Shown here: positions 515 through 50,987 of the stretch, piece after piece
Numbering within the stretch: position 1 is the stretch's first letter
Layout of the letters: each line of letters starts with the position of its first letter
NCBI RefSeq assembly: GCF_964355755.1
Contig: NC_092673.1
Location: 4,030,001-4,094,000 of the forward strand
Direction of reading: 5' to 3'
Origin: Antedon mediterranea
Taxonomy: Eukaryota; Animalia; Echinodermata
DNA: 64,000 nt
The notes under the pieces: generated by a model
Told to the model about the DNA's origin: nothing
Seen by the model: only the letters and a program-made list of their open reading frames with translations
Databases searched by the model: none
Made by a program: the position numbers and the translations under genes

Positions 515-520
515 ATGAAA

Positions 521-600: not shown

Positions 601-717
601 CTCATTCTCACAGAATTCCTCATCTTTATCGTTTAAAATTAATTAATTAAATTTCACTATATCACCCGGGCGGTTTAGAATTACTGTTCTTTGCCTGATT
701 TGTTTATATATATGTAT

Positions 718-2240: not shown

Positions 2241-2500
2241 TATTGATAACTTTAATCTTCCAATAGTTAGTAAGTTAAAACTGCTTGGTGTAATAATCCA
2301 AAATGACCTCAAATGGGGTTCAAATGTTCAAATGATAAAAAAGTCGATAAAAAGTCGACCTACGTCGACTTTTTATTGTAATTGTTATTTTCTATATCAT
2401 GTTTTTTTTTTGTATATTTCTCTTGGATGCACCTTCCATTTGGTCGAGTGCCACTGTTGTAAAAGTGTAATCTCCAAATAAATTATTATAAATTATTATT
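2240..2500 (+). mobile_element. Short fragment of a non-LTR (LINE) RT C-terminus with AT-rich tail
   Basis: Translates KLLGVIIQNDLKW (typical post-RT LINE motif) and is followed by an AATAAA/(ATT)n tail. Confidence 0.45.
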
Positions 2501-2785
2501 ATAACATCAAGAGCCTCACGTAGACCAGTCAACAATACTAGAGAAACCAAAGAGATTCATTATTATCTCTATGTGAGTAAACTTACGACCACCAGACTAT
2601 TATTTGATTATGAACTTCGAACTGTACTTAACTACATAAGAGTCTAGACTAGCATTATCTCATGCATTGTGTGTTTTGAAACAGCTCAAACAAAGTATAA
2701 AATATTTTATATTAATTTTGTTTTTCGTATTGTATTTCTAAGCTTTGTATTTTACTGCATTTTACAGGTGCATTAAAAGCGTACA

Positions 2786-5700
2786 ATGGGAGGATGCTGC
2801 TGCAAGTGTAATAAAGTAGGTAAGGCTTCAACGATTTAACGTGAATTACAGTAGAAAAGAGCGCTACGGTCACACATAAACGCCCTTAAAACAAGTTGGA
2901 AGAGTTTCAATAGGATCGGACCAGGAAGTTGTAATTAGAGTTGTAAATAACAAACTTCCTACAAAAGCCAATTAATGCTATTTTAAGTATATGTTTTTCG
3001 AACGTAATCCGTTCTAACGAATTAGTATTTCGTTTGAACGGATTACTAATCTGTTCAAACGAATTAGTAATCCGTTCAAACGAATTGCAACATATACAAC
3101 AAGTGCCATTCAAAGTATATGTTGTAATTCGTTTGAACGGATTACTAATCCGTTCAAACAAATTACTAATTTGTTTAAACAGATTAATAATCTGTTCAAA
3201 CGAATTAGGAATCCGTTCAAACGGATTAGTAATTTGTTTAAACGGATTACTAATTTGTTCAAACGAATTACTATTTCGTTCAAACGAATTACTAATTTGT
3301 TCAAACAGATTAGTAATCCGTTTAAACAAATTATTAATTTGTTTAAACAGGTTAATAATCTGTTTGAACGAATTAGGAATCCGTTCAAACGAATTACTAA
3401 TTCGTTCAAACAGATTAGTAATCCGTTTAAACAAATTATTAAACAGCATTATCTCATGCATTTTGTGTTTTGAAACAGCTCAAACAAAGTATAAAGATTT
3501 AATATTTTATATTAATTTTGTTTTTCGTATTGTATTTCTAAGTTTTGTATTTTACTGCATTTTACAGATCCAAAATGCACGCCTAAAGGTAAGGCTTCAA
3601 CAATTTAACATGAATTACAGTAGAAAGGAGCGCCGCGGTCACATAAACGCCCTTAAACAAGCTGGGGGAAGATTCAGGGGACAGGGTAGAAACATGCACC
3701 ACCCATGAACTACTTTTTGATCTATTTTTTTTACTATACAGTCGGTAGTATTAATATTACTGTATGTTAGCACTTTCTCATTTTATCGATATGCCTCTTG
3801 GCAATTGTAATTGTACCAAATATAATCAATCACCCTAAATGCTTAAAATCACATGCATGCACTGGATATAGGTTTTATTATTATAATTGTGTATTAAAGA
3901 GTTTATTTCAATTTTTAATTTACATACAGTAATTTTATATTTTGCTTTTCAGAAACTGTGTTTGAATCGGGAAAAAAAAAACCAATATATCGGTAATTTT
4001 GAAGATTTAATTGGATTTATTAGAGATCATGTCTAAACTATTCTACTGCAGTATGCAGTAATTATAGCATATTTTGGATAATCATACACATTGTTTTTTC
4101 AGTGACTAACTTTGAAACAAAGTGAATTGCAGTAAAAATGTAGATACTGCAGTAAAAATGTAGATACTGCAGTAAAAATGTAGATACTGCAGTAGAATAA
4201 TTTTGCCATCCTTTTTTTGTTCATTTACTTTTGTCCTTTATAAATTTTAAAACCTTGAATACAGTAGCACACTATAATGCTTGGTCTCAAATTGTTTGTG
4301 GTCTAAAGGTTTAAAACTTTATTTATTTACAATTTTGTTAATTTCTTGTTGATTTCTCCAAATCTGGTGTTTCAGGAATACAATAATGCTTGGTCTCAAA
4401 TTGTTTGTGATTTAAAGGCTTTCAAACTTTATTTACAATTTTGGTAATTTCTTGGTGATTTTTCCCAATTAGCATTCCAGCTTTGGTGTTCCAGAAAGAC
4501 CATTTCTTGGCGTTTTCTGAAAAGCGACTAAATGGATCGGAAGACTATGGAGCAATGAAAATTGTAGTTAAAAGAAGGCCATTAGAAGGTGATAATGTCC
4601 AATGGAGTGATGAGAAATGCCTATATCCTGTGTATCCTGCAGAAAAGGGAAAAAGGTTTGGGATTTTTATTTTACTCTTTTTACTATTTTTAAGTCATTT
4701 TATACATTTTGGAAACACGCCGAACATTTTTAAGTAGTTTATATCAGCTGCTGCTTTTACAGATTTTACAGAGCTTTCCCAACTTTCGTAAGTCCTTGAT
4801 TGACACCGAAGTGTTAATATACAGTGTACATTTGTTTAACATTTACATTTGTGTTTACTCCACCCTTAGCTTAGGGTGGAGTAAACACAAATGTTAAATT
4901 AAAATAATGGAGATGAAAATTCACAATACAAAGATATTAGACGTCCATGTCAAGAACAACGATAAATATACATTTTTTCTACAGAAAACAAAAGAATTAT
5001 AAAAGTTTTCATACGAGAATTATAGAATCTTTGATGAAAATGATCATTTTAGATAATCATTGTAGGGGGTATTATTACCTCAGTGAACTGGGTCACAAAA
5101 TAGCCCCAGTGTTCTGTGGATAAGAAAGGACAGTGATTAATTTGCTGATTAAGTTGCTGATTAATTTGCTGTTTGTCATCCTTGGCCACATGTGCCTAAA
5201 TACATAAAATTAAAATTGTAGTATTAGTAGTTAATTATTCAGCTTAATGACTGGCATCGACTTTTCTCTTTTCTGACACATTTAACATTTCTCAACTCTA
5301 CATTTGAATTGTACAATCCTATTTAGAATTGTTATCCTCTTTCAAATGGAAGCATGCTCTGAAATGTTCCTGTATCTCTCTTTTCTTTTTTTTTAAAGGC
5401 CAATGAATCCCGTTCCTATTGTTATCAGTGATAAGCACGTCATCTTACTGTTCAACACTTTCCCGGAGGATAAGGAGGAAAATAAAGTAAGAAACAGTGC
5501 CACCCGCGTATGGAATTTATTGATCACACAGAGTCATGATGGTGGAAAAACGTGGGAACCTTCCCGTGAACTACCAGTTGACGAGATCTTTTTTAATTAC
5601 GCAAATGGGATACCATCTTGTTGCGCTATTGGTATGTTTATTTATTTTCCAATCCAATCAAAGAATTGTCAATCATGGTTATCTATTAGAATGTAAATAA

Positions 5701-8700
5701 AGTTGTGTTTTGTCCAGATAAAAACGAGCAGTTGAGTAGATAATAGTATCCTATAAATAATCGCAGAATTTGGCCTGATACTTCGACTACGCCCCTTTTG
5801 GTTAACTAAAGCTGAAAATATCCACAATGCACATCAGCATATTTGGAAAGTGCCTGGCTTTAACTATGTTTACAGTACGATAGTGTACTTTAGATGCTGA
5901 TGCCCAGTATTGTTTAAATTGAAAGTGATTTTTAAAAATGCAAATGCCCTCTATGTTTTTTTGCTTAACCCTTTGAAGCGTATCCGGATATTCACCCCCT
6001 GGACATTTACCCCCCGGACAACTACCCCCCGGACAACCACCACCTGGACCACTACCCCCTTAGGACAACTACCCCTTTAGGACAACTACCCCCCGGACAA
6101 ATACCCCCCGGACAACTACCCCCTTAGGACAACAACCCCCTTAGGACAACTACCCCCTGGACAACTACCCCCCGGACAATTACCCCCTAGGAACAATTAC
6201 CCCCCGGACAATTACCTCCCGGACAATTACCCCCCGGACAATTTTACCACCCAGAAAACTATCCCTTTAGAACACCCTAACCACCCAGACCATTCAACAA
6301 CCTGACTCTGCAACTATTAATTAATAACTATATTTTAATTCGTTACTTTGACGAATTACTATTCATTATTGTAAACAAAAGTAAAAGATTGAACATAAAT
6401 ATAGCCTGGTGGTATAAACTGAAGATTGTCACACATGATCATAGGATAGTCGAACGTATTATATAGTACTCCATGTATTTACTGTAAAGACTGGGTTCGC
6501 TAATAATAATAATAATTTTTGCGTCAGGACAATGCTTCGATAACCACTGGTCTTAAAAGAATTAATTTTTGTCTCAAATTTGTCATATATGTATTTTTGT
6601 ACACTTGAAGAATAATATCACTTTTGATATTTGACCTCAATGTTCACTCACCGAATAAACGTCGATCTTTAAATAAATTCCCCTCAAATAAACGGTGACC
6701 ATGTCACTCCCATGAAACATCATATGGAATAATCGGCGTCTATTTCCATTAGATTATACCCCCTCCCATTGAATAAACAACTTTCTTCCAATAAATGTCC
6801 ACCTAAAAACCACATAAACAATAAACAGCCCAGGCCGTTTTTTCAATAAATACGGTACTTTAAATCTAGCACATCTAGGGTCTAGCGTGCTGTTAAACAA
6901 AACAGAATAATCGGTTAAAAACGGGTGTTTCGAAACTAGAGACCCGAGACCAGAGACCAGAGACCCGAGACCCAATACGAAAAGGGAGACCTAAATATAC
7001 GAAAAGGGAGACCCACGTACGAAAAGGGAGACCCCACTATACCAAAAGGGAGACCCCACTATACGAAAAGGGAGACCCTAATATACGAAAAGGGAGACCT
7101 AAATATACGAAAAGGGAGACCAAATATACGAAAAGGGAGACCCAAATATACGAAATGGGAGACCTAAATATACGAAAAGGGAGACCCACTATAAGAAAAG
7201 GGAGACCCCACTATACGAAAAGAGAGACCACACTATACGAAAAGGGAGACCCTAATATACGAAAAGGGAGACCCAAATATAGATCTCCCTTTTCGTATTG
7301 GGTCTCGTGTCAGGTCTCTGGTCTCCGGTCTCTAGTTTCGAAACACCCGTTAAAAACAGATGATTTCATTTTTACAGAAACCGGTCCTATATATTTGTCT
7401 ACTTTTGGATTGGGGGGGGGGGGGGGGTAGTTGACCGGGGGGTAGTTGACCGGGGGGTAGTTGTCCTAAGGGGGTAGTTGTCCTAAGGGGGTGGTTGTCC
7501 GGGGGGTAGTTGTCCGGGGGGTTGTTATCCTAAGGGGGTAGTTGTCCTAAGGGGGTAGTTGTCCGGGGGGTAGTTGTCCGGGGGGTAGTTGTCCTAAGGG
7601 GGTAGTTGTCCGGGTGGTAAACATCCGGGGGGTAACTGTCTAGGGGGTAGGTGTCCTAGAACCCTTTGAAGACGTGGCCCGTATATATACGAGGTAATTT
7701 TTTGGTCACTGAATTGCGCTTTTTGAGCATTTGACCTTTGACCTAGGTCAAAAAATAAAAATGCAATTTTTCGAAAGGCCAAAACATTTCACATAGCAAT
7801 AAAACCAACAATTGCAGAAAGTTACAGTCATAAAAATGTATTTTGCATTTTTCCTAAAACTATTAGAAATACCATATTAGCCAGAGTCACTTGGGGTAGA
7901 AACCTCCTGTTTCAAAACATAAATGTACAGTACCAGCTAATTTTTAAACTACGTACACAATTATATTGTATTATACAGGACCTGGTCATGCTATCAAGCT
8001 AGATTCAGGAAAGTTAATTGTGTCTGGAAATGTTAGATGGCCAGAATCAAAATCGAAACTTACACGTAAGTGGTGTGCTAAAAATAGAATGTCAAAATCC
8101 CCATACAGTTGACCCCGAAATTGACCTCTTTCTGTGTGTACTGTATTTCCAAATGGCATATATATTACAATATACCTTCATTGTAATTTACAGTACATTG
8201 TACAGTATGCAACAAAGCCGTAGCGAGAGGTTAAAGCGTGGTTCCCACTAGCGACGCAACGCAAGGACGTAACGCAACGCAAGTGAATTGACCAATCACA
8301 AGCGATGGCTTATTCGCTTGTGATTGCTAACTGTGTATAACTTCGCTTGTCATTGGTTAAAACGCTTAATTGCGTTGCGTTTACGTCCTTGCGTTACATT
8401 CTAGTGGGAACCAAGCATTAAAAACAGTTGGTTGGTAGGTCATTTTGATCATTCCATTATTAATCAGGAGGTAGGTCATTTGAAATACTAGAGTATTATT
8501 AAAACTGATTACTGTGTACTAATATTGTAACATGTAGAAGCGGCCTACGACTTAAATCATAAAGAAAATATACATCGCGATAGCGCCCACACGTTGAGCC
8601 TTGAATTGAGTTTGCTTAGCTTGGCTAGGCCTAAATGCTAAGCCTACATTTTAAAAGGTGTATACTGTATTACTTTATGATTTAAGTCGTAGGCTGCTAC

Positions 8701-10521
8701 TACAAGTTACAATAATAATTATTATTAGTAAGAAAACGTATAATACTGTAGTATTTCAAACAAGCTACTCTCTATTAATAATGGAACGATCCATTTGATG
8801 ATCTGGGTTTTCTAGTTCCATTTTGGAACTAGAAAAGTCAGATCTTGATATCTGAGTTTTCTAGATCTAGAAAAGTCAGATATAGATCTAGATATATCCC
8901 AATTTTATCTTTTTACTTATATTAACTTTCTTTTTGTTCTTTCTCTTTGTTGTGTGTTCCTTGTTTTCATCGTTTATCAAATTTGTTTTGATGTATTAAC
9001 GAATTTGAATTTGTAAATCCAAAATGGATCAATATATTAAAAAGTGTAGTTCTCATTTTCGCTTGGTTTCTTAATTCACAGGTCAATTTGCTATTATAAG
9101 TGACGATACTGGAAAAACCTGGCATATGGGAGGTTTCATTCCGTTGCCTGAATCTACAAATTGTTGTAAAAAAGGAAACAAAATCTCAGGAGGTGAATGT
9201 CAGGTAGGCCTACCAAAGATATAATTAATTTTCAATGATTATTGTAGAAAGTTATGTCATTTATTGTTTACGAGAAAGTCCGACATATTTGAAATACTTA
9301 TTTCTTTTTTTCAATTAAAATTTAAATTATACTTATCACTTATGTCTACAGAAAAACGAGTTAGATTTCTAAATATGTTCATATATTTTTTCTTTGCCCC
9401 ATTATTAATAAATGATTGTTTTTATTGATGCATAAAGTTCTGTCTTCACTATCAAACTTTATGTGACAAAAAAATGTGATGTGCCCATATATAGACATGA
9501 TGATGTCATATCACTACCATCTTTGGGCATATCACTACCATAGTATTTGGGCACACTTTTTTTGTCAAACTAGTTTGATAGTCTAGACAGAGCTTTAGTT
9601 AAAAACTGTAATTATTTATACAAATAATTTGTTATTATTTGTAGCCAGCTGACATGGGATCAGACAATGTTGTGATAAACTGTAGGACTGGAGACCGCAA
9701 TCCACGTTTCCAGTGCTATAGCTATGATGCATGTAAAACATTTAGTGACTCAGAGATGATGCCAACATTAATTGAACCAAAAAATGGTTGCCAGGTTAGT
9801 TTTTTTTTTCACCCATTTCAGGATTCCACTTTCTATAGTAAAATGCATTCAACACACAGATTCTGCTGTGCCTGATTGTTGTCAGTCAACTAGCTGGGGC
9901 CAAATAAAATAACAATTTATTGAGCGATCCCATTTTTGGAGTTTTGTAATGACTTGCGGCAAGTCTACCTTGCACCCTGCATAGCTGTGAGCTATGTCCA
10001 TGTTCAACAAGTTTGTAGTACGGTATTTGATTTGGTCACTACCAGTGACCAGTTTTCGCAATAAAAGGAAACAATCTCTGTTGAAGCCACTGGGTTGTCA
10101 AAGGCCTCTGTGAAAAAGTGGTCAGGTTGAAACCTTACCAACCATACTGGTGGCTACGGCCCTGACTACTGCTTAATTTCCCAAGTTACATAGGGCCTAG
10201 TTATTAAAATAATGTATGTATTATTTGTAGGGGAGCATTATTGGTTTTAAAGCAAACGATTCGGAACGCTTGGCACTGTTTAGTAATCCAGCTACCAGCT
10301 GTGTATGTAGGAAAAACCTTTCAGTGCGTTTAAGCAAAGACCAATCATGCAAGACTTATGATCCTCCAAACATAGTCATCGAACCTGATGATTCTGCTTA
10401 CTCGGATTTGGCAGCATTCATTCAAGACGGTGGGCAAACGTTTGCGTGTCTTTTTGAACGTAATAAGAAAACACGAAATATTGCGTTTACGACCTTTACA
10501 CTTGATGCACTTTTACACTAG
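2786..10521 (+). CDS. Sialidase (neuraminidase, GH33, NEU2/3/4-like), paralog A, 9 coding exons, 386 aa
   Basis: Exons 2786-2819, 3568-3588, 3953-3992, 4473-4655, 5399-5631, 7979-8065, 9082-9203, 9645-9794, 10231-10521; all GT-AG and phase-compatible (1161 nt). Protein starts MGGCCCKCNKVDPKCTPKETVFESGKKKPIYRIPAL; contains YRIP, EKR..ED, MNPVP, GPGH, GGECQ, INCR, RKNL, SAYSDL and Asp boxes SHDGGKTW, SDDTGKTW, SYDACKTF. Confidence 0.9.
2960..3445. repeat. Truncated foldback element built from a 21-bp palindromic minisatellite (intron 1 of sialidase A)
   Basis: Same left arm and AATTCGTTTAAACGAATT+ACT/AGT units as 17421-18895; right arm missing. Confidence 0.85.
5979..7663. mobile_element. Non-autonomous foldback (MULE-like) element with C-rich/G-rich tandem-repeat arms
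   Basis: Left arm (GGACAACTACCCCC)n at ~5990-6270 is the inverse of right arm (GGGGGTAGTTGTCC)n at ~7412-7663; CTTTGAAG is duplicated on both flanks (5971-5978 and 7664-7671). Confidence 0.75.
6923..7348. mobile_element. MITE (MULE-like, 9-bp TSD) with internal 20-21-bp tandem repeats
   Basis: TIR GGGTGTTTCGAAACTAGAGACC; TSD GTTAAAAAC at 6914-6922 and 7349-7357; internal (ATACGAAAAGGGAGACCCAAAT)n. Confidence 0.85.
8235..8418. mobile_element. Harbinger-type MITE (unit A only)
   Basis: TIR AGCGTGGTTCCCACTAG / CTAGTGGGAACCAAGCAT, TAA on both sides; the corresponding site in unit B lacks it. Confidence 0.75.
9436..9594. mobile_element. ~160-bp Harbinger-type MITE (AGCTCTGTCTACACTATCAAAC family)
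   Basis: TIR-bounded with TWA flanks. Further copies at 29145-29301, 32964-33121, ~33545-33682, ~35035-35128, 49873-50029, 53692-53849, ~54273-54410, 57362-57522, 58449-58595, 61025-61163 and degenerate at ~13658-13794. Confidence 0.8.
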
Positions 10522-16538: not shown

Positions 16539-19500
16539 ATGGGAGGATGCTGCCTCAAGTCTAAAGTAGGTAAGGTTTCAACGATTTAACGTGAATTACA
16601 GTAGAAAAGAGCGCTACGGTCACACATAACGCGGCCCTTAAAACAAGTTGGGAGAAAAATGGGACTCAACAGGCTAGAAACATGCACCAGGGAGTTGGGT
16701 CTAACAACAACTCCCTGCATGCACCACCCATTTTACAGCTACAGTGAAATATTTGAACTACTTTTTGATCTATTTTATTACTATACAGATGGTAGTATTA
16801 ATATTACTGTATGTTAGCACTTTCTCATTTTCTCGATATGCCTCTTGCCAATTGTAATTGTACCAAACATAATCAATCACCCTAAATGCTTAAAATCACA
16901 TGCATGCACTGGATATAGGTTTTATTATTATAATTGTGTATAAAATAGTTTATTTCAATTTTTAATTTAAATACAGTAATTTTATATTTTGTTTTCAGCA
17001 ATATATAAATTAACAATGACTGACCGTGATCGACAATCTATCACGTGCACAATCACGAGATCTTTGCTCACGTCACTATCTATTTTGTCACCATTTAAGC
17101 GCTTATCGTGGGGGTGAATCGGTTAAAAAAAGAATTGAATTACCTAATTTGACGCACACAAGAGCGGGCCGTGGCCAAATTTATATCGCGCGCGTATAGT
17201 GTGACGCAAACTCGCGCGCGTATAGTGTGACGCAAACCTATTATACAAATCAATAATATAGGCCCTATCCCCCAGCCCAAAATGATCAAAGGTGCTTAAA
17301 TTATTGTACCCAATTCTCAACAATTAGATTTTTCAATTTTAAATTGGTGAATGTTTGACAAAAGTTGGAGCTCCAAAAGGCATTTCATCAACAACATACC
17401 GGCTGTTAATATCACTCAGATACGAAAGCCCATTAATACGAAAGCCCATTAATGCCATTTTAAGTGTATGTTTTTCGAACGTAATCCGTTCTAACGAATT
17501 AGTAATTCGTTTGAACGGATTAATAATCTGTTCAAACGAATTAGTAATCCGTTCAAACGAATTGCAACATATACAACAAGTGCCATTTAAAGTATATGTT
17601 GTAATTCGTTTGAACGGATTACTAATCCGTTCAAACAAATTACTAATTTGTTTAAACGGATTACTAATTTGTTCAAACGGATTACTAATCCGTTCAAACG
17701 AATTACTAATTTGTTTAAACGGATTACTAATTCGTTCAAACGAATTACTAATTTGTTTAAACGGATTAGTAATCCGTTCAAACGAATTACTAATTCGTTC
17801 AAACGAATTAGTAATCCGTTTAAACGAATTAGTAATTTGTTTAAACAAATTAATAATTTGTTTAAACGGATTATTAATCTGTTTGAACAAATTAGTAATT
17901 CGTTTGAACGAATTAGTAATCCGTTTAAACAAATTATTAATTTGTTTAAACAAATTAATAATTTGTTCAAACGGATTACTAATTCGTTAGAACGAATTAG
18001 TAATTCGTTTGAACAAATTAGTAATCCGTTTAAACAAATTACTAATCCGTTTGAACGGATTCCTAATTCGTTTTAACAGATTAGTAATCTGTTTAAACAA
18101 ATTAGTAATTCGTTTGAACAGATTAGTAATCCGTTCAAACGAATTACAACATATTCTTTAAATGGCACTTGTTGTATATGTTGCAATTGGTTTGAACGGA
18201 TTACTAATTCGTTTGAACAGATTACTAAATCCGTTCAAACGAATTACTAATTTGTTTAAACAGATTAATAATCTGTTCAAACGAATTAGGAATCCGTCCA
18301 AACGGATTAGTAATTTGTTTAAACGGATTACTAATCTGTTTAAACGAATTACTAATTCGTTTAAACGAATTAGTAATCCGTTTAAACAAATTATTAATTT
18401 GTTTAAACAAATTACTAATTTGTTTAAACGGATTACTAATTCGTTCAAACGAATTACTAATTCGTTCAAACAGATTAGTAATCCGTTTAAACAAATTATT
18501 AATTTGTTTAAACAAATTATTAATTTGTTTAAACAAATTATTAATTTGTTTAAACAAATTACTAATTTGTTTAAACGGATTACTAATTCGTTTGAACGAA
18601 TTAGTAATCCGTTTAAACAAATTATTAATTCGTTTGAACGAATTAGTAATTCGTTTGAACAAATTAGTAATCCGTTTAAACAAATTAGTAATTCGTTTGA
18701 ACAGATTAGTAATCCGTTTAAACGAATTACAACATATACTTTAAATGGCACTTGTTGTATATGTTGCAATTCGTTTGAACGGATTACTAATTCGTTTGAA
18801 CAGATTATTAATCCGTTCAAACGAATTACTAATTCGTTAGAACGGATTACGTTCGAAAAACATATACTTAAAATGGCATTAATGGGCTTTCCATATACCG
18901 AAGACCAAGACAAAACTATTTCTAGATTTCATGTACTAAAAACACCTCATTTTTTGGCCTATAGATCAACTTTTTTGTATTTCTACTAAAAACGGTATGT
19001 ATGCTTATCCTTGTGGTTTACAAAAGAGAAATTTATGTTATAATGTAGTTAAATATCAGTGCTAAACAAATACAATGTACAAGTAAAGTATGGTCGCTTG
19101 TTTACCACGGATTTTGTGTAACGAGTGGGTTTTCTATAAAATATGGTAGTGGGGCAAGTTGTCACAACCTGTGACAACTTTATACTGTCATATAAATAAA
19201 TAAACTGCTAGATAGGCTTATTCTTGCTTTGTAGGCCTTAAAGCCCCATTCCCTACGTTTTTTAGATCTAATTTAAGATCACAAACTATATTTAATGTAA
19301 AAATAATACTATATGGTCCTATTGCGATAACTTTTTTCGTCTTTAAACGGTTAAAAATGTGAAAAATAAGTCGATTTTAATAATTATAGCGGCCCGCTAT
19401 AAATCCCAAAATGCATTGCGCGCGGATTGATATTTTTGTTTTTCACCTGTAATTCGCCCACTTTTCGATCGATCGTGAGGCCAAAACAAATGGAAGACTC

Positions 19501-22500
19501 CCAACTTTTCAGCGAAAATATCGGGTTTTCCCCAATTTGTATCAACGGAGTCTGGCAAAAATAGAAAGACAATTAATGCAGCAACTATACAACGTCAGGC
19601 TAGGTATATAGCTAGCGTACGATGTTCGTACGTTACCGATGTTTACCAGCTAGGCCTAAAAAACTAAGCCTAGCCAGGCTAGGCCTAAGACCGTCCACGA
19701 GAGGTCGATCGCCGCGAGCTACTTAGGTAGTGCATTGTTTCTCACTTTTTATCATAATTTACCATAAAACGTACATTTAAGACAAGGAATGACATGGTTT
19801 AATGTTTTTAAAGTGATATACATGTATTATTTTCCAAAAAACGTCCAAAATTGCAGGGAAGGGGTCTTTAACCATTTTGTTTTCTTGTCAATTGGATATA
19901 GGGACCCCTAATAATCGAGAAAACACAATGTTTATATTATTTTTTCTATTTTATTCATATGGTACGCAATTAAAAGCGTTAAAAAAAAGTGTTAGATGAA
20001 CATCAGAACCAAAAAAGAAGAAGAATAAACCTAGCTCAAAAGATAAAGTGCACAAGAAAGAAATTGGATGTGTTTGTACTGCAAAGAAGATTATTCCGTG
20101 TCAGTTTCAGGAGAAATCTGTATCATGTTCTCTGTCTGTGAAGAATAGGCTCATGAAGATTGTGCTGGTATCAATGAATCAGATGCAGACTTCACATGTG
20201 AATTATGTTGCTAGCTAGATTTTATTTAAAGTGACATTGTAGATAAATGTATTGCGGACTCTCTACAACAGGACTATAAATAGACCTATATCGATTACAA
20301 CATACTTTAATACTTATTATTATTGTTTTTAATACATTATTCATCATCTAAACTCACTAACTTATGTATAAACACACTTTCTATAAATAAATAAGTTTTA
20401 AGCAGATCTTTCATGCATATTGTCTTATTTTTAACGATGTGACAAAGTGCCCCACTGCATGTGACAACTTGCCCCATGTACGGGGCAAGTTGTCACATCT
20501 GACCCATTGGGGAAAAAGTGCTCCCCTGGGTCACGGTCAAGAGTATTTTCACAATCAATGGTCCCCTTATATAGACCATACCCTAGGCTATATTTGAAGG
20601 TACAAACTAAGTTAATTTAGGCTAAAACTTAATATTTATAGGAGATTAGAATGAATTTGTGACTTTTAGCCCCTATCTCCCCTAATCGTATAGTTGAAAT
20701 TAATAGGTTTTGTTTTGAGGGTGCAAGAGAGTACCTTACATTTCTCAGACTTCAGCGACATTTTTCAATTGGTCATCCATTGTCCGAGTCATGCTTGGAG
20801 TGCATGTGAGTCGTCTATGGTCGAAATTATTTTATTTATTTTGAAGTCATCAGCAAACATAAGGCATCTGGAATTTTCGAAGAGACTTTTACAAAAATGT
20901 TAAACAATAGGGGCCCTAAAATTGAACCCTGTGGCACTCCAGAGAGGAAAGGGAGGGGGTTAGATGTTTCGCCTTCAAGTGTCACTATCTGGAATCGACC
21001 ACTAAGGTAGCTGTCAAACCAAGAATATAGAATTCCATTTACGCCAAATTTATTAAGTTTAAAGAGCAATAATTTATGCGACAGTTTATCAAATGCTTTA
21101 CTAAAATCTGTGTATATAATATCACATTGCTTTTTTGATTCGATGGCTTCATACACGGTAGTCATGAGAGTTTCGAGGTTTGTTTCACATGATCTACCGG
21201 GAAAGAAGCCATACTGTTGTTCAGAAATTAAGGGGAAAATATGGTTTATCAGTTGTTTACTTACAATCTTTTCAAATATTTTGGATATTGTTGGGAGTAG
21301 AAATATGGGTCTATAATTTTGAACGTTAGTCTTAGAACCACTACTACTATGGGGTAGTATGGGATTACTGATACTCTGCTTGGTTCAATCAAGTAATTAT
21401 AATATACCGGTATGCAACAGAAACATGAATAAGTTTTTATACTGGCATTATTAAACTTTAGACTTTCATACCAGATCCACCTTATTTTTCATTTACTCTA
21501 ATGTGAAAGATAATCATAATCATGATCTTTACTCCATTGAATGAATTTCCAACATTCCGTATTTACTGTATGCTCGCAGTTGATGCCCCGTTGGAAATTT
21601 ATGTGATGTGTCATTTTTGTATTTTTTCTATTATATTGTTTGTGGATGCCGTATGTTCCTATTATTATTGTTATATAGCCTAATTCATAGGCCAGAAACC
21701 ATAAATATTCATTATCTCTAAGCCCACCAGACTATTATTTGATTATATGAACCTCGAACTGTCCTTACATAAGAGTCTAGACTAGCATTACTGTATCTCA
21801 TGCATTGTGTGTTTTGAAACAGCTCAAACAAAGTATAAAGATTTAATATTTTATATTAATTTTGTTTTTCGTATTGTATTTCTAAGTTTGTATTTTACTG
21901 CATTTTACAGGTCCAGTATGCACGCCTAAAGGTAAGGCTTCAACGATTTAACATAAATTACAGTAGAAAAGAGCGCTGCGGTCAATAAACGCCCTTAAAC
22001 AAGTAGAGGGAAGATTCAGGGGACAGGGTAGAAACATGCACCACCCATGAACTACTTTTTGATCTATTTTTTTACTATACACTCGGTAGTATTAATTAAT
22101 ATTACTGTATGTTAGCACTTTCTCATTTTCTCGATATGCCTCTTGCCAATTGTAATTGTACCAAATATAATCAATCACCCTAAATGCTTAAAATCACATG
22201 CATGCACTGGATATAGGTTTTATTATTATAATTGTGTATAAAAGAGTTTATTTCAATTTTTAATTTACATACAGTAATTTTATATTTTGTTTTTCAGTAA
22301 CTGTGTTTGAATCCAGCCGCAAGAAAAAAAAAACAAAATATCGGTAATTTTAAAGATTTAATTGGATTTATTAGAGATCATGTCTAAATTATTCTACTGC
22401 AGTATGCAGTAATTATAGCATATTTTGGATAATCATACACATTGTTTTTTCAGTGACTAACTTTGAAACAAAGTGAATTGCAGTAAAAATGTAGATACTG

Positions 22501-25500
22501 CAGTAAAAATGTAGACACACTATAATGCTTGGTCTCAAATTGTTTGTGGTCTAAAGGTTTAAAACTTTATTTATTTACAATTTTGTTAATTTCTTGTTGA
22601 TTTCTCCAAATCTGGTGTTTCAGGAATACAATAATGCTTGGTCTCAAATTGTTTGTGACAAAACTTTCAAACTTTATTTACAATTTTGTTGATTTTTCCC
22701 AATTAGCATTCCAGCTTTGGTGTTCCAGCATAACCATTTCTTGGCGTTTTCTGAAAAGCGACTAACTGGAAAGCAAGACTATGGACCAATGGAAATTGTA
22801 GTTAAAAGAAGGCCCTTAGAAGGTGGCAACTGGAGTGATGAGACATGCATATATCCTGTAACAGAAACTGGAAAAAGGTTTGGGATTTTTATTTTACTCT
22901 TTTTACTATTTTTAAGTCATTTTATACATTTTGGAAACACGCCGAACATTTCTTAAGTAGTTTATATCAGCTGCTGCTTTTACAGATTTTACAGAGCTTT
23001 CCCAACTTTCGTAAGTCCTTGATTGACACCGAAGTGTTAATATACAGTCTACATTTGTTTAACATTTGTGTTTACTCCACCCTTAGCTTAGGGTGGAGTA
23101 AACACAAATGTTAAATTAAAATAATGGAGATGAAAATTCACAATACAAAGATATTAGACGTCCATGTCAACAACAACGATAAATATACATTTTTTCTACA
23201 GAAAACAAAAGAATTATAAAAGTTTTCATACGAGAATTATAGAATCTTTGATGAAAATAATCATTTTAGATAATCATTGTAGGGGGTATTATTACCTCAG
23301 TGAACTGGGTCACAAAATAGCCCCAGTGTTCTGGGGATAAGAAAGGACAGTGATTAATTAATTTGCTGTTGGTCATCCTTGGCCACATGTGCCTAAATAC
23401 ATAAAATTAAAATAAAATTGTAGTATTAGTAGTTAATTATTCAGCTTAATGACTGGCATCGACTTTTCTCTTTTCTGACACATTTAACATTTCTCAACTC
23501 TACATTTGAATTGTACATTCCTATTTAGAATTGTTATCCTCTTTCAAATGGAAGCATGCTCTGAAATGTGGTCCCTGTATCTCTCTTATCTTTTTTTTTA
23601 AAGGCCAATGAATCCCGTTCCTATTGTTATCGATGAAACTCACATCATCTTACTGTTTAACACTTTCCCGGAGAAAAAGCCGGAAAACGATATAGTAGAA
23701 AGTGACAGACGCTTATGGAATTTATTGATCACACACAGTTATGATGGTGGAAAAACGTGGGGACCTTCCGTTGAACTACCAGTTGACGAGATCTTTTCTA
23801 ATTTCGAAAATGGGATACCATCTTGTTGCGCTATTGGTATGTTTATTTCTTTTCCAATCCAATCAAAGAATTGTCAATCATGGCTATCTGTTAGAATGTA
23901 AATAAAGTTGTGTTTTGTCAAGATAAAAACGAGCAGTTGAGTTGATAATATAGTATCCTATAAATAATCGCAGAATTTGGCCTGATACTTCGACTACGCC
24001 CCTTTTGGTTAACTAAAGCTGAAAATATCCACAATGCACATCAGCATATTTGGAAAGTGCCTGGCTTTAACTATGTTTACAGTACGATACTTTAGATGCT
24101 GATGCCCAGTATTGTTTAAATTGGAAGTGATTTTTAAAATGCCCTCTATGTTTTTTTGCAAAGTTACAGTCATAAAAATGTGTTTTAAATTTTTCTTAAA
24201 AATATTAAAAATACCATATTAGCCACAGTCACTTGGGGTAGAAACCTCCTGTTTCAAAACATAAATGTACAGTACCAGCTAATTTTTTTAAACTACGTAC
24301 ACAATGATATTGTATTATACAGGACCTGGTCATGCTATCAAGCTGGATTCAGGAAAGTTAATTGTGTCTGGAAATGTTAGATGGCCAAAATCAAAATCGA
24401 AACTTACACGTAAGTGGTGTGCTAAAAATAGAATGTCAAAATCCCCATACAGTTGACCCCAAAATTGACCTCTTTCTGTGTGTACTGTATTTCCAAATGG
24501 CATATATATTACAATATACCTTCATTGTAATTTACAGTACATTGTACAGTATGCAACAAAGCCGTAGCGAGAGGTTAAAACCAGCAAGGCACAGATGGTT
24601 CAACAGTTACGGGGAAATGGCAAAATTAGCACTGTGTGGTCATGTTACAAGAGTTGTCAAAACAATATAGATTATCTGATAAAAAGCCTTTTGCCATTTT
24701 CCCCTGACTGTTAAATATAATTATTAATATACAATATGACGATCTCTGATGGGGAATTGTGGTGGGTAGTGAAAATTGAAAATTTAGGACGAGGAGAGCG
24801 CTCATCTGCCTCATGCTGGCCACAGCCCTGGTATTCATAAGCCCTTGATACTCAATCCCCAATTTTAACAAGGCCGTAGCGAGGGGTGTCTAGAAAACTC
24901 AGATCTCAGATATATCTGACTTTTCTAGATCTAGAAAACTCAGATATCTGACTTTTCTAGATCTAGAAAACTCAGATATCAATATCTGACGTTTCTAGTT
25001 CCAGAATGAAACTAGAAAACTCAGATCATCAAATGATTGGTTGGTAGGTCATTTGGATCATTCCATTATTAATCAGAAGGTAGGTCATTTGAAATACTAG
25101 AGTATTATTAAAACTGATTACTGTGTAGGCCTACTAATATTGTAACATGTAAAAGCGTCCTACGACTTAAATCATAAAGAAAATACAGTGCATGTTACAG
25201 TTAAAATGTAGGCTTAAAAATTAGGTATGTACGAGTTGGTGTGGGTACGAGCTGGTTGAGGTACGAGTTAGCCAAGATAGGAATAGGTACGAGTTATTTT
25301 AGGTACGAGTTGACCACTTCTAGCCTTGTAGGGCCAGGCCTACTCTTCGCGATAGGGTGTCTCGAAAACAGAGACCTCGAAAACAGAGACCAGCTGAGAC
25401 CCGAGACCCAGGGTCTCTGTTTTCGAGGAAATCTCGAAAACAGAGACCCCACTAAAACGTCTCAATATTACGTATTATAGGGGTCTCTGTTTCGAGTTCT

Positions 25501-28500
25501 CGAAAACAGAGACCCCCACTAAAACGTCTAAATAATACGTTATTATGGGGTCTCTGTTTTCGAGATTTTATCGAAAACAGAGACCCCCACTAAAGCGTCT
25601 CAATATTACATTATATAGGGGGTCTCTGTTTTCGAGAAAAACTCGAAAACAGAGACCCCCCACTAAAACGTCTCAATATTAAGTCATTAAATTACCTTAT
25701 ATAGGGGGTCTCTGTTTTCGAGAAAAACTCGAAAACAGAGACCCCCACTAAAACGTCTCAATATTAAGTCAATATTACGTTATATAGGGGGTCTCTGTTT
25801 TCGAGAAAAACTCGAAAACAGATACCCCCATTAAAACTTCTTAATATTAAGTCAATGTTACGTTATATATGGGGTCTCTGTTTTCGAGTTTTTCTAGAAA
25901 ACAGAGACCCCCACTAAAACGTCTCAATATTACGTCAATATTATGTTATATAGCGGTCCCCACTAAAACGTCTCAAAATCACAGAATGACGTATCAGTAA
26001 TAAACGGTAACTGATATGCCGATCAAAGAACATGCCGCAACGATAAGAAGAGATTGATGAATTCTTGAACGCGTGTGAAAAGACTGTCATTTTGTAATAC
26101 AAGGTCGACGTCCTAGGAGTAAGATGTATAAATGCATGCTGTGCCTTTTAGAAGCTAAAAAGCTGGAGATTATTTCAAAAGCTGACACTAGTTTCTCGGG
26201 TCTCTGGTCTCTGTTTTCGAGACACCCCTTCGCGATACATCGCGAGATAGCGCCCACACGTTGAGCCTTGAATTGCTTAGCTTGGCTAGTAGAATGAATG
26301 AGGTAGAAGCCAGCCGGAGAGGTAGAAATTCTCATATGACTTTTCTAGACCAGTTTTTTCTGGGGAATCCAAATATATTGGGTAAACAGGCTGTAACCTG
26401 AGAACTTTCGCGTGAGGGCGCTTTTTTCAAAATGGCTGCCAGTTACAATAGACTATGATATCTTGGCAACCACTGGTGATACAGAGTTGATTTTGGTGTC
26501 AAATTGGTCGGAATGTACATGTTCCTATTTGATGTAATAGAACATTTTGTCCGAAAATGGCCGGAAATACCTCTATTGACCTTTGACCCAATATCTAACA
26601 GATACCATATCTCCGTAACTACTTGACACAGAAAGTTGTAATTGGTGTCAAACTATCCAGAATATAGATGTTTATATTCAAACTAATAGAACATTATCTG
26701 TAAAAATGACCGGAAATAACTTTAGTGACCTTTGACCCAAAATGCAAGACATTTCTCCTATCTGATCACGTTTAGTAGTATCTTGTCAATTAATTCATTT
26801 TGTGCCGATTGGAGGTTGACATTCTCATATTATTTTCTGGACCAGTTTTTCATGTGTAATCCTAATATATGAGATGAATAAGCCATAACAAGGCCAAGAA
26901 TTTAATTCTTTTACTACATACATACATGCTTCCCTTTAGTGTTTAAGTCTGTATGTCGTGTATTAATCTTCAAGATCGCTCACATCACTGCCATCTGAAA
27001 AGTCTTCATATTCATAACTGGAAGCTTCTGGAATCAAAAGCAAAATTTGTTGACACATTCTGCAACCTTGGAGTGTCAGCTGTTCCATCAAAAGAGTTGT
27101 ATGAGGAACTTGAAGAGTATGTTTCACTATTGTATGGAGTGAAGGGGAAAAGTGTAAATCAAGCAAGATATGATATCTTCATCAGAAAGTTTTCCAGACA
27201 CAAGATTACTGATATATCATTACTGCCACCATGTCAGCAGACCCCTTGAGTTTCATATACTTAGAGCAAACTTCATTGCAAAAGAATGGCAATCAGCAGA
27301 CGTCAATGATTTTGTCAACAACAGTACACACAATGGATGGAATGAACAAATGGAGCCTAAATGGATTGAGACAGTGATGCCCACTGATGTCCAGGAACTG
27401 TTTACACATAATGAATATGAAGACTTTTCAGATTGCAGTGATGTGAGTGATCTTGAAGATTAATACACGACATACAGACTGAAACACTAAAGGGAAGCAT
27501 GTATGTATGTAGTAAAAGAATTAAATTCTTGGCCTTGTTATGGCTTATTAATCTCATATATTCGGATTGCACATGACAAACTGGTTCAGAAAATAATATG
27601 AGAATGTCAACCTCCAATTGGCACAAAATAAATTAATTGACAAGATATTACTAAATGTGATCAGATAGGAGAAATGTCTTGCATTTTGGGTCAAAGGTCA
27701 GTAACGTTATTTCCGGTCATTTTTACAGATAATGTTCTATTAGTTTGAATATAAACATCTTTATTCTGGACAGTTTGACACCAATTACAACTTTCTGTGT
27801 CGAGTAGTTACGGAGATATGATATCTGTTGGATATTGGGTCAAAGGTCAATAGAGGTATTTCCGGCCATTTTCGGACAAAATGTGCTATTACATCAAATA
27901 GGAACATGTACATTCCAAACATTTTGACACCAAAATCAACTCTCTATGACCAGTGGTTGCCAAGATATCATAGTCTACTGTAACTGGTGGCCATTTTGAA
28001 AAAAGCGCCCTCACGCGAAAGTTCTCAGGTTACAGCCCGTTTACCCAATATATTTGGATTCCCCAGAAAAAACTGGTCTAGAAAAGTCATATGAGAATTT
28101 CTACCTCTCCGGCTGACACCTACCTCATTCATAGCCTAGTCTATAGGCCTAAATGCTAAGCCTACATTTTATAAACAAAAGGTGTATACTGTATTTCTTT
28201 TTTAAGTCGTAGGCTGCTACTACAAGTAGTCTGGGTTCCAGACGGAGTTTTGTCTTAATATTAGTTAAAAGATAAATATTTTGGCACATATGGCGTTTCA
28301 TACGTATACTACTTGATTTTGAAATCGCGGTTGAAATAAAAACAAATAAATAAAAAAAAAAGATAATACAGACTTGGGGCAAGTCTACTACTACAAGTTA
28401 CAATAATAATTATTAATTATTAGTAAGAAAACGTATAATACTGTAGTCTTTCAAACAAGCTACTCTCTACTAATAATGGAACGATCCATTTGATGATCTG

Positions 28501-30259
28501 GGTTTTCTAGTTCCATTTTGGAACTAAAAAACTCAGATCTTGATATCTGAGTTTTCTAGATCTAGAAAAGTCAGATATAGATCTAGATATATCCCAATTT
28601 TTTCTTTTTACTTATATTAACTTTCTTTTTGTTCTTTCTCTTTGTTGTATGTTCCTTGTTTTCATCGTTTATCAAATTTGTTTTGATGTATTAAAGAATT
28701 TGAATTTATATTTGTAAATCCAATATGGAACAATATATTAAAAAGTGTAGTTCTCATTTTCACTGGGTCTCTTAATTCACAGGTCAATTTGCTATCATAA
28801 GTGACATTAACAATAATGACAATAATGGAGCAACCTGGCATATGGGAGGTTTAATTTCGTTGCCTGAATCTAAAAATTGTAAAAAAATAAAGAAAATCTC
28901 AGGAGGTGAATGTCAGGTAGGCCCACCAAAGATAATTAATATTCAATGATTATTGTAGAAAGTTATGTCATTTATTGTTTACGAGAAAGTCCGACATATT
29001 TGAAATACTTATTTCTTTTTTTCAATTAAAATTTAAATTACTTATCACTTATGTCTACAGAAAAACGAGTTAGATTTCTAAATATGTTCATATATTTTTT
29101 CTTTGCCCCATTATTAATAAATGATTTTTTTTATTGATGCATAAAGTTCTGTCTTCACTATCAAACGTTATGTGACAAAAAAATGTGATGTGCCCATATA
29201 TAGACATGATGATGTCATATCACTGCCATCTTTGGGCATATCACTACCATTATTTGGGCACACTTTTTTTGTCAAACTAGTTTGATAGTCTAGACAGAGC
29301 TTTAGTTAAAAACTGTAATTATTTATACAAATAATTTGTTATTATTTGTAGCCAGCTGACATGGGATCAGACAATGTTGTGATAAACTGTAGGACTGGAG
29401 ACAGCAATCCACGTTTCCAGTGCCATAGCTCTGATGCATGTGAAACATTTAGTGACTCACAGTTGATGCCAACATTAATTGAACCAAAAGGTGGTTGCCA
29501 GGTTAGTTTTTTTTTTCACCCATTTCAGGATTCCACTTACTAATATAGTAAAATGCATTCAACATACAGATTCTGTGCCTGATTGTTGTCAGTCAACTAG
29601 CTGGGGCTAAATCAAATAAAAATTTATCGAGCGATCCCATTTTTGGAGTTTTGTAATGACTTGCGGCAAGTCTACCTTGCACCCTGCATAGCTGTGAACT
29701 ATGTCCATGTTCAACAAGTTTGTATTATTTGATTTGGTCACTACCAGTGATGTAGTCACAATATAAGTGGTCCGGTTTTCGCAATAAAAGGAAACAATCT
29801 CTGTTGAAGCCACTGGGTTGTCAAAGGCCTCTGTGAAAAAGAGGTCAGGTTGAAACCTTACCCGCCATACTGGTGGCTACGGCCCTGACTACTGCTTAAT
29901 TTCCCAAGTTACATAGGGCCTAGTTATTAAAATAATGTATGTATTATTTGTAGGGGAGCATTATTGGTTTTAAAGCAAACGATTCGAAGCTTCCTGAAGA
30001 CCCTGAACGCTGGGCACTGTTTAGTAATCCAGCGAACAGCAAATCGAGGAAGAACCTTTCAGTGCGTTTAAGCAAGGGCCAATGCCAGAATTGGTATGAC
30101 CCTCCAAACATAGTCATCGAACGTCATGGTTCTGCTTACTCAGATTTGGCAGCATTCATTCAAGACGGTGAGCAAAAGTTTGCGTGTCTTTTTGAACGTA
30201 ATAAGACATCGAGACGACGATATATTGAGTTTACGACCTTTACACTTGGTAAAGTGTAA
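16539..30259 (+). CDS. Sialidase (NEU2/3/4-like), paralog B, 9 coding exons, 392 aa
   Basis: Exons 16539-16569, 21911-21931, 22298-22343, 22707-22877, 23604-23836, 24323-24409, 28783-28916, 29352-29501, 29954-30259 (1179 nt, no internal stop). Starts MGGCCLKSKVGPVCTPKVTVFESSRKKKKTKYRIPAL; all catalytic motifs retained. Confidence 0.9.
17421..18895. mobile_element. Foldback DNA element with long TIRs and an internal 21-bp palindromic minisatellite
   Basis: Left end TACGAAAGCCCATTAATGCCATTTTAAG mirrors right end CTTAAAATGGCATTAATGGGCTTTCCATA over >180 bp; interior is ~60 units of an 18-bp palindrome plus a 3-bp spacer. Confidence 0.88.
18900..20682 (+). mobile_element. Remnant of a pogo-like DNA transposon with a decayed PHD finger
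   Basis: 20062-20214 translates NWMCLYCKEDY...GEICIMFSVCEE*AHEDCAG...FTCELCC*; repeated GGGGCAAGTTGTCACA motifs; right end ...CTCCCC followed by TA. Left boundary uncertain. Copy at ~40258-41410. Confidence 0.5.
19242..19867. mobile_element. 626-bp non-autonomous Kolobok-like element (unit B only)
   Basis: TTAA at 19238-19241 and 19868-19871; imperfect TIR AGCCCCATTCCCTAC / GCAGGGAAGGGGTCT (RR...YY termini); unit C has a single TTAA at the empty site (~40596-40599). Confidence 0.85.
20690..21350 (-). mobile_element. LINE (CR1/L2-like) reverse transcriptase fragment
   Basis: YTDFSKAFDKL and GVPQGSILGPLLFNIF motifs in ORF 20836-21165, FADD after a frameshift. Copy at ~41418-42078. Confidence 0.88.
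25355..26227. mobile_element. MULE-like non-autonomous element with internal hairpin-repeat array
   Basis: TIR GGGTGTCTCGAAAACAGAGACC; TSD CTTCGCGATA at 25345-25354 and 26228-26237; internal GGGTCTCTGTTTTCGAG...CTCGAAAACAGAGACCC units. Copy at 46083-46955. Confidence 0.85.
26290..28143. mobile_element. Academ-like non-autonomous transposon with ~725-bp TIRs
   Basis: TAG...CTA termini, 3-bp TSD TAG (empty site GGCTAGGCC in unit A at ~8623); interior encodes frameshifted VNQARY...LLPPCQQT/LEFHILRANFIAKEW...HNGW...PKW, resembling the C-terminal region of Academ-type proteins. Confidence 0.8.
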
Positions 30260-30319
30260 AGGACTAGCCAACACTTGCTCTTCTTTCTTGACCTCATTTA
30301 CCTACAAATATAATAGGTC

Positions 30320-49800: not shown

Positions 49801-50987
49801 GATTTCTAAATATGTTCATATATTTTTTCTTTGCCCCATTATTAATAAATGATTTTTTTTATTGATGCATAAAGTTCTGTCTTCACTATCAAACGTTATG
49901 TGACAAAAAAATGTGATGTGCCCATATATAGACATGATGATGTCATATCACTGCCATCTTTGGGCATATCACTACCATTATTTGGGCACACTTTTTTTGT
50001 CAAACTAGTTTGATAGTCTAGACAGAGCTTTAGTTAAAAACTGTAATTATTTATACAAATAATTTGTTATTATTTGTAGCCAGCTGACATGGGATCAGAC
50101 AATGTTGTGATAAACTGTAGGACTGGAGACAGCAATCCACGTTTCCAGTGCCATAGCTCTGATGCATGTGAAACATTTAGTGACTCACAGTTGATGCCAA
50201 CATTAATTGAACCAAAAGGTGGTTGCCAGGTTAGTTTTTTTTTTCACCCATTTCAGGATTCCACTTACTAATATAGTAAAATGCATTCAACATACAGATT
50301 CTGTGCCTGATTGTTGTCAGTCAACTAGCTGGGGCTAAATCAAATAAAAATTTATCGAGCGATCCCATTTTTGGAGTTTTGTAATGACTTGCGGCAAGTC
50401 TACCTTGCACCCTGCATAGCTGTGAACTATGTCCATGTTCAACAAGTTTGTATTATTTGATTTGGTCACTACCAGTGATGTAGTCACAATATAAGTGGTC
50501 CGGTTTTCGCAATAAAAGGAAACAATCTCTGTTGAAGCCACTGGGTTGTCAAAGGCCTCTGTGAAAAAGAGGTCAGGTTGAAACCTTACCCGCCATACTG
50601 GTGGCTACGGCCCTGACTACTGCTTAATTTCCCAAGTTACATAGGGCCTAGTTATTAAAATAATGTATGTATTATTTGTAGGGGAGCATTATTGGTTTTA
50701 AAGCAAACGATTCGAAGCTTCCTGAAGACCCTGAACGCTGGGCACTGTTTAGTAATCCAGCGAACAGCAAATCGAGGAAGAACCTTTCAGTGCGTTTAAG
50801 CAAGGGCCAATGCCAGAATTGGTATGACCCTCCAAACATAGTCATCGAACGTCATGGTTCTGCTTACTCAGATTTGGCAGCATTCATTCAAGACGGTGAG
50901 CAAAAGTTTGCGTGTCTTTTTGAACGTAATAAGACATCGAGACGACGATATATTGAGTTTACGACCTTTACACTTGGTAAAGTGTAA
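37897..50987 (+). CDS. Sialidase (NEU2/3/4-like), paralog C, coding sequence apparently identical to B
   Basis: Exons 37897-37927, 42639-42659, 43026-43071, 43435-43605, 44332-44564, 45051-45137, 49511-49644, 50080-50229, 50682-50987. Confidence 0.88.
38779..40253. mobile_element. Foldback element with 21-bp palindromic minisatellite, unit C
   Basis: Copy of 17421-18895 with two substitutions in one unit near 39920. Confidence 0.88.
47018..48871. mobile_element. Academ-like palindromic element, unit C
   Basis: Copy of 26290-28143. Confidence 0.8.

Follow-up and report, generated by a model that had tools for sequence, protein, structure and literature searches.

We analysed a 64,000-nucleotide (nt) stretch of the genome of Antedon mediterranea (contig NC_092673.1, positions 4,030,001 to 4,094,000, hereafter the window), where an earlier reading, made from the sequence alone, had proposed that micro-exons in the region 2786-3992 give a sialidase an N-terminus of the myristoylation and palmitoylation type. 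Self-comparison showed that the plus strand of the window carries one gene in three copies arranged in tandem, starting at 2786 (A), 16539 (B) and 37897 (C). Joining the micro-exons to six exons located by tblastn gave a stop-free model of 386 amino acids (aa) in nine coding exons for copy A, and models of 392 aa, also in nine exons, for copies B and C. As the coding sequences of B and C are identical, they cannot be treated as three independent copies together with A and are counted as one (B/C).

By their predicted sequences, copies A-C are intact genes for an animal sialidase of the GH33 family (NEU2-5 type). The junction of exons 3 and 4 creates an (F/Y)RIP motif near the N-terminus. Ten active-site positions were checked and none is missing from A or B, so that the Arg triad, the Tyr/Glu nucleophile pair and the Asp acid/base (roles taken from PMC3431349) are in place; a relaxed home-made pattern found three Asp boxes in A and two in B. 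A search with exon 5 yielded one protein among seven candidates, the sialidase-3-like P0001 of Antedon mediterranea (73% identical), and phmmer found no match for exon 4 alone in the PDB. The structural model of P0001, which is a sister of A with 72% identity, is a six-bladed beta-propeller (predicted local distance difference test score, pLDDT, 92) whose best PDB matches are NEU2 structures with a template modelling score (TM-score) of about 0.8, and we apply this fold to A by that identity.

The sequence-only reading had claimed micro-exons of 34, 21 and 40 nt in A and of 31, 21 and 46 nt in B/C, and both sets were borne out. Those of A have AG/GT ends and phases 1, 1 and 2 and are joined in frame to exon 4 (4473), the Arg of YRIP marking the junction, and those of B/C are present in the stop-free 392-aa frame. 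Comparison of A with B indicates that they act as coding exons, because their divergence resembles that of exons and not that of flanks, the exon lengths keep the frame and stops are absent. Of the 92 micro-exon sites 12 have changed, compared with 17 of 613 in the flanking DNA (Fisher p 1e-4); across all exons 104 of 1128 sites differ, in four introns 37 of 1942. Each difference in exon length is a multiple of 3, and no stop has arisen despite 126 coding substitutions between A and B. In a neutral simulation, in which 126 substitutions were scattered randomly in 5000 runs, about six stops were expected and only 0.12% of the runs had none (P 0.0012). The micro-exons of A-C are thus confirmed at the level of the sequence. 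The exons, at 9.2%, are about five times as diverged as the introns (1.9%), upstream non-coding DNA standing at 3.5%, and the proportions of nonsynonymous (pN, 0.118) and synonymous (pS, 0.086) differences give a pN/pS of 1.4, not significantly different from 1 (Fisher p 0.20). A divergence restricted to the exons in this way suits diversifying selection, or gene conversion that would homogenise introns but not exons.

Five candidate first coding exons running from an ATG to a phase-1 donor were found in 1-3952. Four of them lie inside a retroelement remnant upstream and were rejected, as they are outside the segment common to the sister gene described below, in which only the candidate at 2786 is located. 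One of the rejected four also begins with MG by chance, so that MG by itself proves little. An ATG within exon 2 was discarded as a start as well, being out of frame and followed by a stop after three codons.

The earlier reading had named an upstream in-frame ATG with a signal peptide as a case that would speak against it. This is countered by an in-frame TAA four codons before the ATG of A, which itself has A at -3 and G at +4. As a splice acceptor (2766-2767) precedes exon 1, this exon is probably not the first transcribed one. Further support came from a 1110-nt contig in run X5 that represents a fourth gene, a sister with about 87% identity to A; that X5 is RNA is the program's guess only, and the contig is without introns. 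In it exon 4 is followed directly by exon 5, the intron of 743 nt being absent, and it matches 2562-2777, with no listed difference from copy A within 2748-2777, and then continues directly with the ATG and the MGGSTSK codons. The distance from this ATG to exon 4 is 65 nt, exactly as required by the first 21 residues of P0001. Because a DNA contig of run X1 with the same differences retains the introns, the X5 contig is most probably a spliced transcript. It has 634 nt before the ATG with an acceptor-like segment left unspliced, either a long 5' untranslated region or a retained intron. These data support a model in which the sister gene has a homologous ATG exon spliced onto the propeller, without a signal peptide, and via this homology the predicted start codon of A is well supported. 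No X5 contig covers exon 1 of A or B, which is uninformative on expression.

The predicted start of A fits an N-myristoylation signal with nearby cysteines, and related crinoid sialidases share its Gly2, which is also frequent among those of fish; to this extent the proposed acylation-type N-terminus stands. Within the first ten residues A carries Cys4, Cys5, Cys6 and Cys8, and B/C carry Cys4 and Cys5, the Cys codons of the start exon forming a TGC run; in total A has 19 and B 14 cysteines, compared with 9 in P0001. Ser, Thr or Cys is preferred at residue 6 of a myristoylation signal (PMC4692089), which is Cys in A and Leu, outside the preferred set, in B/C, and the motif of B/C is predicted to be weaker than that of A. 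In Src-family kinases, cysteines beside the myristoylated Gly are S-acylated (PMC2132482).

Other parts of the proposal fell away. The retention of MGGCC between the copies had been taken as evidence, but these residues would stay unchanged by chance in about a quarter of cases (0.235), which is not significant, and we rejected the notion that selection has kept them. Similarly, GKKK and RKKKK had been counted as part of the anchor, but exon 3 is the conserved first propeller strand and the lysine run lies in loop 1: the exon 3 counterpart in P0001 aligns with the first segment of human NEU2 in the PDB match and forms strand 8-11 in the P0001 model (pLDDT 92). A does have four spaced Lys in residues 7-18, the KKK run itself mapping to loop 1. 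Loop 1 was placed on the active-site face of the propeller (PMC3431349). The lysine run of exon 3 may affect substrate or membrane contact. The statement that a signal peptide is lacking holds, as no hydrophobic stretch was found before RIP or in the whole protein, and the best 9-residue hydropathy before RIP is 0.41 in A and 1.22 in B, compared with more than 1.8 in 16 of 22 non-animal matches, which sets A and B apart from secreted or signal-anchored sialidases (NEU1, bacterial enzymes and hydrophobic-anchored NEU5); this is, however, normal for the family, since NEU3 has no signal peptide and NEU2 is cytosolic.

In A as well as in B, the flanks of exon 1 (about 120 nt before and about 70 nt after it) recur almost unchanged around exon 2. 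Of the last 12 nt of exon 2, 11 agree with the 3' end of the start exon in the sister gene, exon 2 being 18 nt shorter and lacking the ATG, and the sister gene has a single start-exon unit, located about 380 nt before exon 3 by arithmetic from the DNA contig (the second intron of A has 364 nt). The shared flanks, the match of exon 2 and the single unit of the sister together indicate that the start exon was duplicated. In the ancestor, a single start exon, of the MGGSTSK/MGNTNTK type, would have been joined directly to the exon of the first propeller strand. Within the A-C lineage this start exon and its flanks would have been duplicated, the upstream copy turning Cys-rich via the TGC run and the downstream copy losing 18 nt including the ATG and persisting as an in-frame, skippable linker of seven residues; this order of events is the one that we infer. 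The cysteines would then be a recent gain in the A/B lineage.

We examined the starts of related sialidases in the best 120 of 127 matches of a homologue search, 94 of which were classed as animal, mostly from their names and, for a few entries without a name, from their sequence; six without a Met start or an early RIP were dropped, leaving 88. P0001 starts with MGGSTSK, and both complete Anneissia starts (P0002 and P0141) are MGNTNTK; P0141 was also the only match in a search aimed at short N-terminal fragments. An MG start was found in 36 of the 88 animal homologues, compared with 4.4% Gly at positions 3-12 and with 1 of 25 non-animal starts. The full myristoylation pattern, with Ser or Thr at residue 6, is present in 31 of the 36 MG starts versus 305 of 2310 internal Gly residues, and 13 of the 36 have Cys within residues 3-10, including the cichlid starts MGCGCS and MGCGHS. 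In four longer models the motif is hidden at an internal Met. Another 15 of the 88 have an NKPS-like start without Gly2, and fish paralogues within one species pair MGNKPS with MANKPS starts (e.g. mackerel P0077 and P0056). In such pairs, the predicted site of myristoylation would in effect be switched on or off by nature.

A profile search (best 150 of 9206 matches) brought in enzymes of amphioxus and other ambulacrarians. A hydrophobic N-terminal segment (17-residue mean above 1.7) was found in 8 of 18 proteins of deuterostome invertebrates, among them P0126, a second sialidase of Antedon, and an amphioxus protein and two acorn-worm proteins have neither the Gly2 signal nor this segment. P0121, P0124, P0125, P0126, P0128, P0131, P0137 and P0278 are of the NEU5 type and have an N-terminal hydrophobic segment followed by a stem, like type II Golgi enzymes. 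The segment is present in many NEU5-type sialidases of sea urchins, sea cucumbers, brittle stars, crinoids and acorn worms; the accessible text of PMC3431349 makes no mention of it.

In a quick tree of 62 rows, rooted at the midpoint and hence unrooted, A and B have P0001 as their sister, in a clade made up of crinoid sequences only, with support values of 99 and 100 in the Shimodaira-Hasegawa-like approximate likelihood ratio test (SH-aLRT). This clade is separate from the hydrophobic-anchored group and from a vertebrate clade of 37 rows (SH-aLRT 100). A vertebrate NEU3 orthologue was thus ruled out, as the crinoid genes lie outside the vertebrate NEU2-4 clade and have nine coding exons compared with two reported for NEU3 (PMC3431349). 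Any placement in the NEU5 subgroup would have to be read in the light of the long branch of the crinoid clade (1.37) and of the bacterial rows within its group in this quick tree. The simplest interpretation would be that crinoids and fishes gained Gly2 separately, although the tree is unrooted; MG combined with Cys arose separately in cichlid and turtle sialidases.

With moderate confidence we favour the interpretation that the locus encodes an intact crinoid sialidase whose Gly2 start is likely myristoylated, and likely also palmitoylated on the new cysteines, so that the enzyme would be kept at the cytosolic side of a membrane. The enzyme would be synthesised on free ribosomes, Met would be removed and Gly2 myristoylated co-translationally, and Cys4-8 would be palmitoylated at the membrane, steps that follow the established biology of N-myristoyltransferase and of S-acylation. 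A weak single-lipid anchor would in this way become a stable dual anchor on a tether of about 18 residues. As with NEU2, the likely substrates would be sialoglycans arriving in the cytosol or at endomembranes; the cytosol contains sialylated free glycans, which are lowered by NEU2 (PMC4598761). Some of the enzyme may get outside by vesicles, as reported for NEU3, which was described in extracellular vesicles (PMC11416241, PMC13770669). Because cytosolic glycans and vesicles provide ordinary substrates and an export route, damage of vacuoles need not be invoked.

A number of observations weigh against a lipid-anchored product of A-C. The spliced evidence comes from the sister gene only, whose start has no cysteines, and the sole public protein matching A is a 172-aa model from A. 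mediterranea, present in three accessions and identical to residues 215-386, which starts at the internal Met215. It is without the N-terminus, and among the catalytic residues both the Asp and the first Arg are absent; micro-exons overlooked in the annotation, incomplete RNA or genuine mis-splicing may be behind it. Searches of protein databases yielded neither A nor B at full length. The homology to the 5' region of the sister stops near 2562, with the retroelement remnant immediately upstream, so that the ancestral promoter may be lost in A-C, and a second GT donor 4 nt upstream of the exon 1 donor (after 2815) scores equally in a crude count and would break the frame. Regarding the signal itself, predictions of myristoylation yield false positives (PMC4692089), residue 6 of B/C is Leu, and the Met-Gly-Cys arrangement is absent, as residue 3 is Gly in A and B/C; Cys at position 3 is essential for the rapid anchoring of Fyn (PMC2132482). 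Finally, the MG counts are dominated by related teleosts, which are not independent.

The start might be real in copies that are mostly non-productive, i.e. recent duplicates without the ancestral promoter that are partly transcribed or mis-spliced, so that the Cys-rich start is seldom made. The annotation of A as a C-terminal product only, in three accessions, the lack of an annotated full-length A or B, the pN/pS that does not differ significantly from 1 and the retroelement remnant upstream are all in line with such a scenario. We nevertheless consider it unlikely, given that frame-keeping exon lengths and the absence of stops persist despite the 126 coding substitutions (the neutral P of 0.0012 given above), that the catalytic residues are all retained and that the roughly fivefold excess of exon over intron divergence is not given by drift alone. 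Quite unlikely, in our view, is that the protein is made as modelled with its cysteines unpalmitoylated, or with B/C unmyristoylated, the Cys run being a neutral product of TGC slippage, a metal or disulfide site, or even abolishing the anchor, which would leave some copies soluble like NEU2 or zebrafish Neu3.2. The TGC run of the Cys codons, the higher overall Cys content of A and B and Leu6 in B/C point in this direction, as do the fish paralogues, which often retain NKPS without Gly2 (15 among 88), so that loss of the anchor is common in the family. A, however, still fits the motif with Cys6 and Lys7, the Src-family precedent shows S-acylation of cysteines next to the myristoylated Gly (PMC2132482), and MG plus Cys evolved separately in cichlid and turtle sialidases.

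The special roles envisaged by the sequence-only reading, sensor-like action on vacuoles that are damaged or on microbes inside the cell, or export of the HASPB type by dual acylation to act outside the cell, appear improbable to us. The rapid divergence of A and B, confined to the exons, would suit a role in host-microbe contact or recognition, and NEU3 gets outside without a signal peptide, vesicles being among the routes (PMC13770669, PMC11416241). Yet we found nothing that would connect the gene with infection or with damage to vacuoles, HASPB serves as an analogy only, a pool of housekeeping substrates exists in the cytosol (PMC4598761), and the separate, hydrophobic-anchored Antedon sialidase P0126 could serve the outer or luminal side.

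How does the predicted crinoid enzyme compare with known systems? It shares with human NEU3 the beta-propeller, the lack of a signal peptide and of a predicted membrane helix, fatty acylation at the cytosolic face, which for the crinoid enzyme is a prediction, and the puzzle of topology (PMC5482835, PMC13770669). In contrast to NEU3, for which, in the text available of these sources, the acylated cysteines are unmapped, it has an explicit signal of Gly2 and Cys and lies outside the vertebrate clade. Human NEU2, zebrafish Neu3.2 and medaka Neu3b have the same fold, cytosolic synthesis and the same first strand before YRIP (PMC10487903, PMC4598761), but are described as soluble, with no lipid-anchor start reported in the accessible parts of these papers; in zebrafish, Neu3.1, Neu3.3 and Neu4 associate with membranes, unlike the soluble Neu3.2 (PMC10487903). 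The NEU5 subgroup (echinoderms, hemichordates, amphioxus and lamprey) is close to NEU2-4, varies in exon structure and was speculated to be membrane-associated (PMC3431349), but the accessible text of that paper mentions neither crinoids nor acylation, and many of the members found here are hydrophobic-anchored instead. With the SH4 motif of Fyn and other Src-family kinases and of G-alpha-o the start shares Gly2, cysteines in the first ten residues and nearby lysines (PMC2132482); it differs in that the crinoid Cys are at 4-8 and not at 3 and that B/C have Leu6, and the likeness is one of signal type without sequence homology. The sialidase-3/4-like proteins of teleosts (MGNKPS or MGCGCS) have the same predicted signal shortly before the first propeller strand, with cysteines in cichlids, but are located on a separate branch of the tree, so that the gain was probably independent, and no paper noting the motif was found.

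A lipidated sialidase on the cytosolic face had been presented as lying opposite to the usual place of sialoglycans. This is not a new paradox, as human NEU3 is already known to be S-acylated and signal-less with a disputed topology (PMC5482835, PMC13770669), so that the cytosolic side is the known puzzle of the family. That the anchor is undescribed in animal sialidases holds in part: fatty-acylated NEU3 is known, but a literature search of titles and abstract openings, in which journals on fish sialidases were poorly covered and absence from print is thus not established, gave no report of a myristoylated animal sialidase, and the string 'myrist' does not occur in the available text of PMC5482835, PMC13770669, PMC3431349, PMC11416241, PMC10487903 and PMC13214540. 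What appears to be new, and apparently unreported, is an explicit predicted N-terminal signal of the myristoylation type common to crinoid and many fish sialidases and upgraded here by cysteines.

A 2026 review calls both the way in which NEU3-type enzymes are held at the membrane and their working side unresolved (PMC13770669). A mutable Gly2 anchor, paralogues with and without Gly2 and an oppositely anchored sister group make this question directly testable, and the same anchor may account for the difference between soluble and membrane-bound Neu3 paralogues in fish (PMC10487903). This locus also illustrates how a one-lipid signal may become a two-lipid signal through exon duplication, in a gene whose N-terminal half was missed by public annotation. 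A wider generalisation is possible, although we put it forward only tentatively: signal-less animal sialidases may repeatedly and independently have gained a myristoylation signal (in crinoids, teleosts and a turtle), which was several times upgraded by Cys to a dual anchor and is switched off in tandem paralogues by loss of Gly2, while the sister NEU5 enzymes are oppositely anchored by a hydrophobic N-terminal helix, and lipid anchoring at the cytosolic face would be a general rule for NEU3-like enzymes. If this were true, the proteins of crinoids and fish would offer the first anchor that is both mapped and mutable, by which one could settle how a NEU3-like enzyme meets its substrate.

Table 1. 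Location of the sialidase gene copies and of the exons of copy A in the window
Feature	Position	Strand	Content
Copy A, 5' untranslated part of exon 1	2768..2785	+	after AG acceptor 2766-2767; contains in-frame TAA 2774-2776
Copy A, coding exon 1	2786..2819	+	34 nt; start codon, Gly2, Cys4/5/6/8, Lys7; predicted myristoylation and palmitoylation signal
Copy A, exon 2	3568..3588	+	21 nt, phase 1-1, in-frame skippable; 7-residue linker including one Cys
Copy A, exon 3	3953..3992	+	40 nt; first propeller strand and basic loop preceding YRIP; catalytic domain
Copy A, exon 4	4473..4655	+	RIP, SEKR, catalytic Asp
Copy A, exon 5	5399..5631	+	MNP motif, Asp box
Copy A, exon 6	7979..8065	+	
Copy A, exon 7	9082..9203	+	catalytic Glu; Met215, start of the public 172-aa model
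Copy A, exon 8	9645..9794	+	second Arg
Copy A, exon 9	10231..10521	+	third Arg, Tyr nucleophile, stop
Copy B	16539..30259	+	9 exons, 392 aa; micro-exons 16539-16569, 21911-21931, 22298-22343
Copy C	37897..50987	+	coding sequence as B; micro-exons 37897-37927, 42639-42659, 43026-43071

B and C are 99.98% identical across 15,127 nt (19868-34994 vs 40596-55722), and copy C may be either a very recent duplicate or an assembly duplication (Table 1). In run X1 the contig depth was about 145 for A-specific, 280-320 for B-type and 240-300 for sister-gene sequences. Depth is a poor measure of copy number, but these values hint that a copy is hemizygous or was duplicated in the assembly.

Several other elements accompany the sialidase copies. 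A Sir2-family gene, which we take to be SIRT5-like, lies tail to tail with the sialidase on the minus strand and is partly co-duplicated (33295-35047 and 54023-56444, with a piece near 13797-14370), and a weak Pfam match marks an exon of the Hsp70 family, presumably HSPA12-like, at 61426-62151 on the minus strand. The retroelement remnant, which has a GIY-YIG match and is by our assumption Penelope-like, is found a few hundred bases 5' of each start exon (1221-2327, 15116-15985 and 36474-37343). Intron 1 harbours a high-copy element with tandem repeats of about 21 nt (2960-3442, 17440-18890 and 38798-40249), which in B and C takes the form of a large inverted repeat.

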